The notes beneath the pieces are model-generated. The model did no database searches. It was given only the letters and a program-made list of their open reading frames with translations, and was not told the DNA's origin. Shown here one piece after another: positions 8,045-13,384 of a DNA stretch of 13,384 bases (position 1 is its first letter; each line of letters starts with the position of its first letter). The position numbers were made by a program, and so were the translations under genes. This stretch comes from a virus (taxonomy: Duplodnaviria > Heunggongvirae > Uroviricota > Caudoviricetes): IMG/VR virus record IMGVR_UViG_2548876943_000023. One strand, written 5' to 3'.

Positions 8045-8551
8045 ATGAATTTAAGCGCAATGGTATACCCTGATACTTTCATAATTAATGGCGAATCATT
8101 CAGAGGTAAAAGAAACGCAAAAGAAAACAAGGTATTAATTCCATATACAAATGAACCGGAAGTAACTATTGGTCAACACATTATCCAGCGTGTCGGTAAA
8201 AACGAGATAAATCTAAAAATTATAGATATGAAGTTGCTTCCCAATGGAACCCTCAGACAGGGAACCAATCATCCAAATATGTTGACTCTCTATATTGAAA
8301 ATATCACGGGAAATGAACATATGACGCCAACTAAAAGTAATACATTTAACATTGGTTCAATTAGTGGTGATCAAGTGCAGATAGGTGAGCATAACCATAT
8401 GCTGGTAAACATCAGCATCACTGAACTGGTTGAAAAAGTCGCTAAATCGGGGGATGTACAAGCCAAATCAGTATTAAAGCAGTTACTGGAAAACAGTACC
8501 GTTGCCAGCATTGTTGGGGCTGGCGCAAGTGCCCTAATAGGCTTACTGTAA
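8045..8551 (+). CDS. Hypothetical cargo protein (168 aa) with hydrophobic C-terminal segment; candidate defence or helper-interference effector
   Basis: Clean ORF on the opposite strand to all backbone genes. Visibly AT-rich, with N/I/K-rich codon usage. Has its own promoter, Shine-Dalgarno and terminator. The C-terminal 17 aa (TVASIVGAGASALIGLL) form a small-residue-rich hydrophobic helix. No family recognised. Confidence 0.7.
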   Translation: MNLSAMVYPDTFIINGESFRGKRNAKENKVLIPYTNEPEVTIGQHIIQRVGKNEINLKIIDMKLLPNGTLRQGTNHPNMLTLYIENITGNEHMTPTKSNTFNIGSISGDQVQIGEHNHMLVNISITELVEKVAKSGDVQAKSVLKQLLENSTVASIVGAGASALIGLL

Positions 8552-11916: not shown

Positions 11917-12237
11917 TTATCCCCGATTTGAATCAGTATTCGCTTTCTTTATGGCATTTAATGCATCTGCGGCATTTTCAATGGTGCACCGTAACGAAAT
12001 ATCAAACTGCCCAAGCATTGCCAGTAACAAACCGATATTACCCATATCAATGCGCATAGCCTTTTCGTCATAGTCCTCATTTTCTGACGCATGCCACATC
12101 AGGCTACCAATTGACGCAATACCCATTGATATATTGTCAGTAGCCCCATCCGCAGCGGAATAAACCTTTTTAGCAATATCATGCTCACAGTTAAAATGCG
12201 GATTAATCAGGTACTGGTAATTTGACATATCAGGCAT
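11917..12237 (-). CDS. Hypothetical protein (106 aa)
   Basis: ATG at 12237 with an AGGGGGTG Shine-Dalgarno; 6 bp before the next ORF. No family recognised. Confidence 0.55.
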   Translation of the reverse strand: MPDMSNYQYLINPHFNCEHDIAKKVYSAADGATDNISMGIASIGSLMWHASENEDYDEKAMRIDMGNIGLLLAMLGQFDISLRCTIENAADALNAIKKANTDSNRG

Positions 12238-12433
12238 GGCACACCCCCTGACGAATACGGGCGGCGAATACCATCACGCAGCCAGCCGGGGATTGCTGGC
12301 GTGCTTCCTGTTCGCTGGTGGCCACGATGTGAATCACGCGCGGTTGTGCCGTGCTCAGGGCGATAAAACGCCAGATGAATTTATTCAGGTTGTGCGAGTC
12401 CCGCCCTTGCGGGTGTGTGGTATGATTTAACAT
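12230..12433 (-). CDS. Possible small protein (67 aa), first gene of the minus-strand early operon
   Basis: ATG at 12433 with a GAGGT Shine-Dalgarno; overlaps the next gene's start by 8 nt. It is the C-terminal part of a long non-protein-like ORF in the track, so it is uncertain. Confidence 0.3.
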   Translation of the reverse strand: MLNHTTHPQGRDSHNLNKFIWRFIALSTAQPRVIHIVATSEQEARQQSPAGCVMVFAARIRQGVCHA

Positions 12434-12529
12434 AGCTACCTCGATACTTCTGCTATCGTTGGTGGTTAGAAGCCCGGTTAGTGTTAGCGCACTGCCGGGT
12501 TTCGTCGTTTCTGCACCTTGCATCAACAA

Positions 12530-12584
12530 GGTGTTAAACACCAATTTAAGCCTAGGTGTTAAACACGTCAAGTGTTGAACACTT
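12530..12584. promoter_or_regulatory. Three palindromic operator-like sites in a divergent promoter region
   Basis: GGTGTTAAACACC (12530-12542), GTGTTAAACAC (12556-12566) and AAGTGTTGAACACTT (12570-12584). A promoter-like TTGAAC-N17-CATACT overlaps site 3. The region lies between the minus-strand operon start (12433) and the plus-strand small ORF (12633). Confidence 0.55.
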
Positions 12585-12632
12585 ATTTTTTTTCCTGCAT
12601 ACTGCATTTGTTTTTTGTAAGGAGTACACAAC

Positions 12633-12812
12633 ATGGCGACAAAAGCAGTAAACGCAAAATCACAAACAGTTGCGGCAAGGGTTCCGCATGAAGTTATGAA
12701 CAATGTTGAGGCGGTAAAAATGCCTGGTGAAAGTACAGGGCAGTTTGTAACAGCAGCATTAAAGCGAGAAGTTGAATACCGCCAGCGTCGCAAGGCCAAA
12801 GAGCAGGAGTAA
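12633..12812 (+). CDS. Small ribbon-helix-helix-like DNA-binding protein (59 aa), candidate repressor
   Basis: Not in the ORF track (under 60 aa). Strong Shine-Dalgarno AAGGAG 8 nt before ATG. Translation MATKAVNAKSQTVAARVPHEVMNNVEAVKMPGESTGQFVTAALKREVEYRQRRKAKEQE fits a strand-helix-G-helix RHH pattern. Confidence 0.55.
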   Translation: MATKAVNAKSQTVAARVPHEVMNNVEAVKMPGESTGQFVTAALKREVEYRQRRKAKEQE

Positions 12813-12869
12813 CCATCACCAGCGCCGTGGTGCGGTGAACTGTGGCGCACAGGGTTACAGGTATCTACG

Positions 12870-13049
12870 ATGACTGACAAATCATTAAAGAAATTATCCT
12901 CATCCAAGAAAAAACAACGCAAAAATGCGGTAAACGAACATGAACCGGAGAGATTCGCACCATGTGCGTTTATCCTTGAGAAGTACCTTAAAGAGTATTC
13001 TAGGAAAATACGCTCATTGCAGGCATGGCAGCGAATCGAGCCAGACTGA
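12870..13049 (+). CDS. Possible small Lys-rich protein (59 aa)
   Basis: ATG at 12870 with a weak AGGT Shine-Dalgarno. MTDKSLKKLSSSKKKQRKNAVNEHEPERFAPCAFILEKYLKEYSRKIRSLQAWQRIEPD. Uncertain. Confidence 0.3.
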   Translation: MTDKSLKKLSSSKKKQRKNAVNEHEPERFAPCAFILEKYLKEYSRKIRSLQAWQRIEPD

Positions 13050-13113
13050 TAGCATTGCCCACTAGCCGACAACCTGGTATTCTGGATATGCTCAAGTTTA
13101 GTGTTATGCCACT

Positions 13114-13141
13114 GGCGACCGCCCCCGGTCGCCTTTGTTTT
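13114..13141 (+). terminator. Rho-independent terminator ending the plus-strand small-ORF transcript
   Basis: GGCGACC-gccccc-GGTCGCC followed by TTTGTTTT. Confidence 0.7.
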
Positions 13142-13159
13142 ATGTGTCATAGCTCCCCC

Positions 13160-13384
13160 CTAGGCTGCCTTACCTGAATTAACGCGGTCACGGCTTTGCA
13201 CCCAGTCCATAACTTCGGAAAGCAACCAGCCTACAGAACGCCCCCCAAGATTACGGCGAGACGGAAAGCCCCCTTTCTTCTCCAGTTCGTAGCGTGTAGT
13301 ACGGCTGACGCCTGTTAACTTACGACATTCATCCTCACGAATTACGCGATCTGTTAGTGATTGAAATTGTGTATTTTGATTCAT
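13160..13384 (-). CDS. alpA: AlpA-family (excisionase-like, MerR-type HTH) transcriptional regulator
   Basis: 74 aa. The pattern LTGVSRTTRYELEKKGGFPSRRNLGGRSVGWLLSEVMDWVQSR is typical of AlpA/prophage regulatory proteins. The ATG is the last three bases of the window, so its promoter and any integrase lie outside. Confidence 0.85.
   Translation of the reverse strand: MNQNTQFQSLTDRVIREDECRKLTGVSRTTRYELEKKGGFPSRRNLGGRSVGWLLSEVMDWVQSRDRVNSGKAA

Follow-up and report, generated by a model that had tools for sequence, protein, structure and literature searches.

Which factor keeps a Gram-negative phage-inducible chromosomal island (PICI) silent? The founding PICI paper described the global repressor of Gram-negative elements as unclear, and the question arises at positions 12434-12812 of IMGVR_UViG_2548876943_000023, a 13,384-nucleotide stretch of DNA (hereafter the window) from a capsid-forming PICI (cf-PICI) of E. 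coli. This region carries three palindromes, a rightward gene for a 59-amino acid (aa) protein of the YlcI/YnfO family and a predicted rightward SymR-like RNA gene, and it adjoins a leftward operon that extends from an icd-like gene to the primase gene. An initial annotation, made from the letters alone, had proposed the palindromes and the small protein as a candidate master switch. By comparing the region with related loci, we consider it likely that an autoregulated ribbon-helix-helix (RHH) repressor and an antisense RNA together keep the icd-like-to-primase operon off.

Three palindromes overlap the cores of two predicted divergent promoters

The region to the right of the predicted RNA gene comprised the following features.

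12531-12541, unstranded: candidate operator O1, GTGTTAAACAC, within a 13-bp palindrome, GGTGTTAAACACC, at 12530-12542
12556-12566, unstranded: candidate operator O2, GTGTTAAACAC, an 11-bp palindrome
12572-12582, unstranded: candidate operator O3, GTGTTGAACAC, within a 15-bp palindrome, AAGTGTTGAACACTT, at 12570-12584
12543-12571, minus strand: leftward sigma-70 promoter, with -35 TTGACG (12571-12566), a 17-nt spacer and -10 TAAATT (12548-12543)
12575-12603, plus strand: putative rightward promoter of the RHH gene, with -35 TTGAAC (12575-12580), a 17-nt spacer and -10 CATACT (12598-12603)
12633-12812, plus strand: gene of the 59-aa YlcI/YnfO-family protein, a predicted RHH repressor; Shine-Dalgarno sequence AAGGAG at 12619-12624, 8 nt before the ATG

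The palindromes of 13, 11 and 15 bp and the consensus Shine-Dalgarno sequence of the 59-aa open reading frame (ORF) were thus found as the initial annotation had described them. The palindrome core, GTGTTRAACAC, occurred exactly three times in the window, versus 0.01 ± 0.10 expected matches (200 dinucleotide shuffles, none of which reached three), and no further copy with one mismatch or fewer was found in 31 kb of the native locus. Another inverted repeat, 12600-12611/12639-12650, was treated as chance because most of its left arm falls upstream of the point where rightward transcription is predicted to begin.

A scan of 12200-13384 reported the leftward promoter as its sole sigma-70-like site, and an alignment of 22 loci showed that the TCAA of its -35 complement was invariant and that its -10 read TATAGT in most. 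The rightward promoter scored 8/12, below the threshold of the scan; in the alignment, its -10 was TATACT in most loci, with AT-ACTG invariant or nearly so. O1 begins one base past the leftward -10, at the predicted leftward transcription start, O2 fills the spacer of the leftward promoter and abuts its -35, and O3 covers the rightward -35 in loci of the GTGTTRAACAC class. Positions were kept in the related loci as well. O1 lay at -98 to -104 from the start codon in nearly all of them, each time with the sequence of that locus's class, and O2 lay at -76 to -78 in every module-bearing locus, always directly followed by [GTC]TCAA. The third site was located at -61 in the GTGTTRAACAC class (the window, L002 and L004) and at about -32, just past the rightward -10, in the other classes. 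Judged from the sequence, this placement is repressor geometry for both promoters, and a protein bound at these sites would be expected to repress both. The divergent layout opposite a minus-strand early operon running through the primase gene, as first proposed, therefore includes palindromes that overlap both divergent promoters.

The 59-aa protein likely folds as a ribbon-helix-helix

The 59-aa protein belongs to the YlcI/YnfO family by its hidden Markov model NF041551 (DUF3950; 59.7 bits versus a cutoff of 30, E 2.1e-16, residues 9-50), and RefSeq gives the identical protein the same label. It also matched phrog_949 (function: none known) and shared only 22% identity with YlcI of E. coli K-12. 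The family is small (a search of 1.84 billion proteins gave 81 cluster representatives at E <= 1e-3), and it is not typical of deposited phages, because tblastn against 50,697 phage records gave no match. A search for functional literature on YlcI, YnfO or DUF3950 found none.

An AlphaFold (AF2) model from a 32-sequence alignment, with a predicted local distance difference test score (pLDDT) of 81, had an extended N terminus and helices at residues 19-28 and 35-58. The predicted layout, a strand at about residues 10-17, helix 19-28, a G32-E33-S34 turn and helix 35-58, is the strand-helix-helix topology of RHH proteins with a G-x-S/T/N turn before the second helix. The G32-E33-S34 turn was invariant in 32 homologues, R16-V-P-H-E was conserved, and residues 11-17 alternated between variable or polar and hydrophobic ones, which is the sequence signature of RHH proteins. 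The RHH pattern assigned in the initial annotation was therefore borne out in signature and predicted topology, whereas structural and profile matches were weak. The model only weakly resembled RHH repressors, with Arc among its best structural matches. Foldseek of the model against the PDB returned no match, sequence and profile searches against the PDB gave no meaningful one, and Pfam contained no RHH match for the protein or its close homologues. Remote family members weakly matched PSK_trans_fac (4 members, E 2.9e-4), RHH_1 (E 4.5e-4), HicB_lk_antitox and TacA1, and hhalign placed KSQTVAARVPHEV on KMPQFNLRWPREV of Arc in the correct register but at only 5% probability. With the fold evidence being moderate, we regard an RHH fold of the protein as likely.

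Operator sequences change in step with the predicted recognition strand

Scanning one genome per species identified 31 loci with relatives of the 59-aa protein in more than 20 enterobacterial species, among them members of Edwardsiella, Pectobacterium, Kosakonia, Yokenella, Serratia, Xenorhabdus, Proteus, Klebsiella and other genera. Upstream of nearly every relative, two to four copies of an 11-bp GTG-N5-CAC (or CTGG-N3-CCAG) motif were present, at offsets from the start codon that were common to the loci (about -102, about -77, and either -61 or about -32). Protein residues 10-16 and the motif core changed in step, resulting in at least 11 specificity classes, of which the following are examples (residues 10-16, then operator).

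SQT[VLI]AAR: GTGTTRAACAC
SQSLKSR: GTGTGGCCCAC
S[KR]KLEAR: GTGTCAGCCAC
SKRFDVR: GTGTCGGACAC
SQKLQAR: GTGGACTCCAC
SQKMSAR: CTGGCACCCAG
SQKIQAR: CTGGATTCCAG
SQKTSVR: GTGryGGACAC

Four further variants were fetched as a test of this pairing between strand and operator. In a quite different element, which has a KilA-N neighbour and no alpA, the strand SKRFDVR was accompanied by three copies of GTGTCGGACAC, as predicted. The strand SKKIDVR occurred with GTGTCAGACAC, SQSVTAR with GTGTAAGACAC/GTGTCTTACAC and SQALRAR with GTGTAGACCAC/GTGGTCTACAC, and a 101-aa variant of E. coli Nissle 1917 (SQSLTAR) had degenerate, GTAAG-type sites. This last YlcI/YnfO variant (L045:7197-7502), which has a C-terminal extension, occupies the same position in another capsid-encoding satellite, located at tRNA-Pro beside yejM; an icd-like pseudogene overlaps its 3' end.

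Within the predicted strand, positions 12 and 14 varied most (5 and 8 residue types, respectively), position 13 was hydrophobic bar one threonine, position 15 was small, and R16 was invariant. This is the pattern expected if alternate side chains of a beta ribbon face the DNA. In a categorical permutation test on 21 de-replicated loci, pairs with at most one difference in the strand had on average 1.0 operator mismatches versus 3.67 for the other pairs, a result reached in 0 of 20000 permutations. Because distances saturate between classes, the Mantel rank correlation between operator and strand distances did not reach significance (r 0.13, p 0.09). Both tests ignore shared ancestry, and the mosaic loci described below therefore carry more weight. 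The co-variation indirectly supports, from comparison of sequences, the reading of the repeated sites by a ribbon. Overall, it is very probable both that the 59-aa protein is a DNA-binding protein of the RHH type and that the three palindromes serve as its operators, as the initial annotation had supposed.

Would such a protein autoregulate only its own small operon, for example as an antitoxin-like partner of a cargo ORF, and have no role in the life cycle? The rightward unit does contain a second ORF.

12870-13049, plus strand: ORF2, 59 aa; phrog_21027, E 5.4e-30
13114-13141, plus strand: intrinsic terminator at the end of the rightward unit, GGCGACCGCCCCCGGTCGCC + TTTGTTTT, with its T-run on the plus strand only

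ORF2, which is probably co-transcribed with the RHH gene, encodes a lysine-rich protein and carries no RefSeq annotation. It was not conserved, being absent from all 31 related loci, and unrelated ORFs of 69-248 aa took its position in other elements; its site thus looks like a variable cargo slot that would be expressed with the repressor. No toxin or defence family matched ORF2 in family scans and PADLOC. Furthermore, many loci, such as those of Xenorhabdus, have no room for a partner ORF, since alpA ends about 400 bp after the RHH gene. In all classes, O1 and O2 fall in the leftward promoter core, which leaves the third site as the only one in contact with the protein's own promoter, and between co-resident elements divergence is focused on the operators and the recognition strand, which is an immunity-region pattern. 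We therefore consider a purely autoregulatory role unlikely and favour a repressor that also controls the leftward operon.

A SymR-like antisense RNA is predicted at the start of the leftward operon

The initial annotation took the whole 200-bp gap between the leftward operon and the 59-aa ORF as the control region. Operators and promoters were indeed found there, but the leftmost ~75 nt (12434-12510) very probably encode a structured plus-strand RNA, so a predicted SymR-like RNA gene within 12434-12812 was missed.

12434-12510, plus strand: predicted SymR-like cis-antisense RNA of ~75 nt, with hairpin 1 (12434-12467), a terminator hairpin (12469-12503) and a U-rich tail
12418-12426, plus strand: putative promoter of this RNA, extended -10 TGgTATGAT, hexamer 12421-12426, inside the first icd-like codons
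12230-12433, minus strand: icd-like gene, 67 aa; NF033153, E 4.6e-20, in agreement with the RefSeq annotation of the identical locus

RNAalifold on 24 loci returned two hairpins, in which 16 of the 24 pairs had compensatory double changes. On the plus strand, 97.7% of the cells were paired, a value that none of 500 shuffles reached and that compared with 30-46% in slid controls. Canonical pairing amounted to 97.7% on the plus strand versus 82.9% on the minus strand, G.U pairs numbered 86 versus 1, and the minimum free energy was -35.8 kcal/mol (z -5.4) versus -20.5 kcal/mol (z -1.8). A U-rich tail followed the second hairpin in the 3' direction on the plus strand only. These data indicated that the structured strand is the plus strand.

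The Rfam model of SymR (RF01809) matched the plus strand at 12434-12506 with 33.6 bits (E 4e-4), below its gathering score of 61, and matches below this score were found at the same place in L009 (45.6 bits), L008 (40.4 bits) and L004 (28 bits). At gathering level, Rfam had no SymR, C4, isrK or other match in the window. Located 7 nt before the RNA start, the TAnnnT of the putative RNA promoter hardly varied among 22 loci, and this -10 aligned with that of E. coli K-12 symR (TAGAAT). Moreover, K-12 symR and the symE leader (L046:3808-3960) aligned with window positions 12405-12545, and the alignment took in the -10, the start-codon position, the two hairpins and a GGTTAG linker. SymE/SymR may descend from a satellite control region of this kind.

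As expected of a two-hairpin cis-antisense RNA, the predicted transcript begins next to the opposite gene's start codon and spans the Shine-Dalgarno sequence of that gene. It is fully complementary to the 5' untranslated region (UTR) of the icd-like mRNA, including the Shine-Dalgarno sequence (GAGG, 12442-12439), with the ATG at 12433. The predicted target is thus the icd-like gene rather than the SOS-induced symE, and RHH operators take the place of the LexA box of symE. The icd-like gene is the first of the leftward operon and is followed by hyp106, DUF4222 and the primase gene. By analogy with SymR, P22 sar and P1 c4, the RNA should block translation of this first gene and thereby lower expression of the operon, and it is probably a second lock on the leftward operon.

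The same DNA is also transcribed as the 5' UTR of the leftward operon, and the immunity RNAs of P4 and P1 are processed from the sense leader. Accordingly, the hairpins at 12434-12503 might act in the minus-strand leader, as an attenuator or a processing site, with no separate antisense RNA. The strand differences in G.U pairs, canonical pairing and z score given above, the plus-only U-rich tail, and the homology to the experimentally known plus-sense SymR, including its -10, all argue against this, as does the lack of a C4 or isrK match in the window, such matches having been noted in some PICIs (PMC10111431). We regard a leader element as improbable, and retain the plus-strand antisense RNA.

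Mosaic loci link the repeats to the RHH gene

In L002, from Edwardsiella hoshinae, the 59-aa protein was 100% identical and the operators were the same, whereas AlpA, the Icd-like protein and the primase were only 31%, 53% and 42% identical, respectively; at the DNA level, 85-100% identity with the window was confined to 12400-12800. The module of RNA, operators and RHH gene is thus exchanged across genera as a cassette. Conversely, E. coli L033 shared 90-97% identity with the window in the icd-like gene and the RNA and 82-95% in the C-terminal half of the RHH gene, but this figure fell to only 40-70% in the operators and the gene's N-terminal half, as though its specificity cassette had in effect been replaced. 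Two satellites in one Xenorhabdus mauleonii genome were 84-98% identical in the flanks versus 40-72% in the control segment. By analogy, such a mosaic pattern is that seen in immunity regions. Taken together with the loci considered below, the mosaic excludes the possibility that the repeats are determined by AlpA, by the Icd-like protein, by the primase or by host factors.

AlpA, a known activator and excisionase-family regulator, had also been raised in the initial annotation as a possible binder of the palindromes, and the small ORF would then be incidental. The alpA gene is about 600 bp away, AlpA is needed for cf-PICI induction (10.1101/2022.09.08.507074), and an activator site beside the operon promoter is plausible. 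Sites inside a promoter core, however, have repressor geometry. In addition, L010 and L014 have an AlpA 100% identical to that of L027 but repeats that differ at 5 of 11 positions, whereas the window, L002, L003 and L004 share their repeats with AlpA only ~30% identical, and L039 and L040 retain the RHH gene with three matching repeats but have no alpA nearby. The comparative data thus appear largely to refute binding by AlpA, which we hold to be very improbable. Equally remote is the idea that the primase/Rep binds the repeats as iterons or an origin element, or that they are bound by the Icd-like protein or a host factor. In its favour, short repeats beside a replication module might be iterons, and the Icd-like protein matches phrog_6196 and phrog_1743, both labelled transcriptional repressor. 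Against it, L002 keeps the repeats with the divergent primase and Icd-like protein noted above, L018 has an 82% identical primase with different repeats, L033 has other repeats beside its closely similar icd-like gene, L039 has KilA-N in place of icd, and E. coli, like one individual Xenorhabdus genome, harbours more than one operator class, which speaks against a host factor.

Proposed switch mechanism and the place of AlpA

These results are consistent with the following mechanism for the RHH repressor and its antisense RNA. In the integrated state, the RHH protein would be made from the rightward promoter, and its dimer would insert the N-terminal beta-ribbon (about residues 10-17) into the major groove of the three GTGTTRAACAC operators. 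Protein on O1 and O2, which bracket the -10, would exclude RNA polymerase from the strong, conserved leftward promoter and turn off the operon for the icd-like gene, DUF4222 and primase (replication), whereas protein on O3 would confer negative autoregulation. A constitutive plus-strand RNA of ~75 nt would block translation of, and destabilise, those leftward transcripts that escape repression. The module, consisting of the RNA, the operators and the N-terminal half of the protein, would be swapped between elements as a cassette with many specificities, like immunity repressors. Induction would presumably be imposed from upstream, where alpA is located.

13160-13384, minus strand: alpA, 74 aa; PF05930, E 4.8e-16

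The alpA gene is convergent with the RHH gene and is upstream of the leftward operon, in the same orientation as the operon; in nearly all related loci, it was likewise downstream of the RHH gene on the minus strand. Once a helper phage switches on alpA, transcription from the alpA side could run antisense through the RHH gene into the operon and override the lock. We infer this read-through because all genes except the module are co-oriented and the terminator at 13114-13141 has its T-run on the plus strand only. In published work, helper phages switch on alpA, and AlpA activates its own expression and downstream PICI genes (PMC6092414; 10.1101/2022.09.08.507074); AlpA of Pseudomonas is a processive antiterminator (PMC7969949, PMC9371919), and no paper linking PICI AlpA to this antitermination was found in the literature.

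The initial proposal of a "master switch" needs to be weighed against the same literature. alpA is essential for cf-PICI induction (10.1101/2022.09.08.507074; PMC6092414), and an essential activator of this kind speaks against placing the RHH protein at the head of the hierarchy; it may nonetheless act as such a switch, a role that we infer, as we do binding, repression, the effect of the RNA and the steps involving AlpA.

Immediately upstream of the alpA ATG, and just beyond the edge of the window, is a hairpin, CCCTCG..CGAGGG, with TGTTTTT after it (L001:16186-16216, minus strand). It ends one base before the alpA start codon and includes the likely Shine-Dalgarno sequence (GAGGG). The hairpin is terminator- or attenuator-like and could be a site of helper-dependent alpA control; the terminator scan gave no call there. 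The Rfam int-alpA RNA (RF02996) was found above its gathering threshold (35.8) in two related satellites, L003 (5853-5921, minus strand, 39.4 bits) and L005 (5893-5961, minus strand, 44.6 bits), and none was found upstream of alpA in the studied element (L001 15900-17200).

A wider reading joins these points. Contrary to earlier belief, Gram-negative PICIs and cf-PICIs would possess an immunity (maintenance) repressor, namely the YlcI/YnfO RHH protein; its operators and recognition strand would come as a dozen or more interchangeable specificity cassettes, which would define hetero-immune groups of satellites and let several of them share one cell; the helper would override the repressor through AlpA-driven upstream transcription; and chromosomal SymE/SymR would be what remains of this leader module after domestication, LexA having taken the place of the RHH protein. 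We put this joint reading forward tentatively, as somewhat less than an even chance.

Likeness to known systems

The immI region of phage P22 contains the RHH repressors Mnt and Arc, the divergent promoters Pant and Pmnt, and the sar antisense RNA. In the island, as in P22, a small predicted RHH repressor is divergent from the operon it would repress, its putative operators overlap the cores of both back-to-back promoters, and a short predicted cis-antisense RNA covers the ribosome-binding site of a gene in that operon; the 59-aa protein also aligns in register with the recognition strand of Arc. The two differ, however, in that no significant sequence similarity exists, that one RHH gene is present here instead of two, and that three 11-bp GTG-N5-CAC sites replace the single Arc or Mnt operators. 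Moreover, the operon presumably controlled here is the satellite replication module and not an antirepressor, and the AlpA activator is located upstream.

SymR/SymE of K-12 is a type I toxin-antitoxin system in which, as here, the RNA starts beside the opposite start codon and covers the Shine-Dalgarno sequence. Unlike in that system, the RNA scores only 28-46 bits against the gathering score of 61, its target is icd-like and not symE, the sense promoter is guarded by putative RHH operators and not by a LexA box, and nothing here suggests a toxin.

Satellite P4 has the promoters PLE and PLL, Vis and the CI RNA, with PLL-vis placed upstream of PLE, and P1 immI has the c4 RNA, icd and ant. The island resembles P4 in carrying an AlpA/Vis-type gene upstream of, and co-oriented with, the constitutive early promoter of an operon that ends in primase, and it resembles both P4 and P1 in a probable RNA-based immunity acting on the operon leader, with an icd-like first gene as in P1. 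In contrast to P4 and P1, the RNA here would be a true cis-antisense transcript rather than one processed from the sense leader, consistent with the lack of a C4 or isrK match, and P4 has no RHH repressor at this position. From the plasmid RHH autoregulators CopG of pMV158, omega of pSM19035 and ParG, the module differs in family, operator type and biological setting.

The master repressor Stl/Rpr of SaPIs (pathogenicity islands in Staphylococcus aureus) and other Gram-positive PICIs is likewise encoded divergently from an excision/replication operon (PMC6092414), and the function proposed here, to keep the island quiescent, is the same. The likeness is one of geometry, namely a divergent gene with operators on the promoter of the replication operon. 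Stl proteins, in contrast, are larger helix-turn-helix proteins that are inactivated by binding helper-phage proteins, whereas the protein here is a 59-aa predicted RHH protein for which no helper-encoded anti-repressor is known, and induction of Gram-negative PICIs runs through AlpA.

Distribution and significance of the module

Of 5426 complete E. coli genomes, 638 contained at least 80% of 12434-12812 and 1131 contained part of it. Switches that pair an autoregulated RHH repressor with a cis-antisense RNA are well known; the novelty lies in assigning such a switch to the YlcI/YnfO family and to this class of satellite. A later PICI survey, which describes immunity RNAs in "Bro zones" (PMC10111431), mentions neither the 59-aa protein nor the SymR-like RNA, and a text search of the literature on PICIs and ribbon-helix-helix proteins found nothing relevant. 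The module thus offers a concrete and widespread candidate for the repressor of Gram-negative PICIs, as well as a probable fold, function and DNA target for YlcI/YnfO (DUF3950), a family with no known function. In addition, at least 11 natural pairs of recognition strand and operator would be useful for studying RHH specificity, for engineering and for orthogonal repressors, and the orphan antitoxin RNA SymR becomes linked to the leader regions of phage satellites.

Neighbouring genes and minor features

In E. coli TUM12357 and other strains, a chromosomal locus matched 1.2 kb around the control region at 100% identity, and RefSeq annotation places this native island between thiM and rcnR. On one strand, RefSeq annotates an integrase, DUF6387, an AlpA-type regulator, an Icd-like protein, a hypothetical protein, DUF4222, a D5/P4-type primase and SSB, and the same strand continues with major capsid protein, prohead protease, portal, connector, HNH, TerS and TerL. 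In the regulatory zone, the sole RefSeq gene on the opposite strand is that of the "YlcI/YnfO family protein". Our own family scans agreed with RefSeq for AlpA (PF05930), the Icd-like protein (NF033153), DUF4222 and the primase (D5_N/Pox_D5). cf-PICIs are defined as islands of ~15 kb in which int, alpA and primase are accompanied by their own capsid, protease, portal, connector, HNH, TerS and TerL genes in a single orientation (10.1101/2022.09.08.507074), and the island was therefore classed among them by its gene set.

A 306-aa minus-strand ORF (12230-13150) was rejected as a gene. It had no family match and a nonsense-like sequence, in L002, L008 and L018 a stop ends the frame after 5, 27 and 37 codons, respectively, and RefSeq annotates only its 67-aa Icd-like part. 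Antisense to the RHH gene, it crosses that gene and the operators and continues into the icd-like gene. The frame is probably an artefact, although long open antisense frames of 169-348 codons oddly recur in several related loci.

Between the SSB and capsid modules, a 168-aa ORF (8045-8551, plus strand) is located on the opposite strand of the otherwise unidirectional island. It had no Pfam match, and PADLOC matched neither this ORF nor ORF2 nor the RHH protein; it may be an accessory gene. Finally, a 20-nt direct repeat, 80% identical between its copies, occurs at 12478-12497 (TTAGTGTTAGCGCACTGCCG) and 13098-13117 (TTAGTGTTATGCCACTGGCG). The first copy falls within a plus-strand terminator hairpin and the second immediately precedes such a hairpin; the repeat may reflect duplication of a terminator module or a protein site common to both copies.

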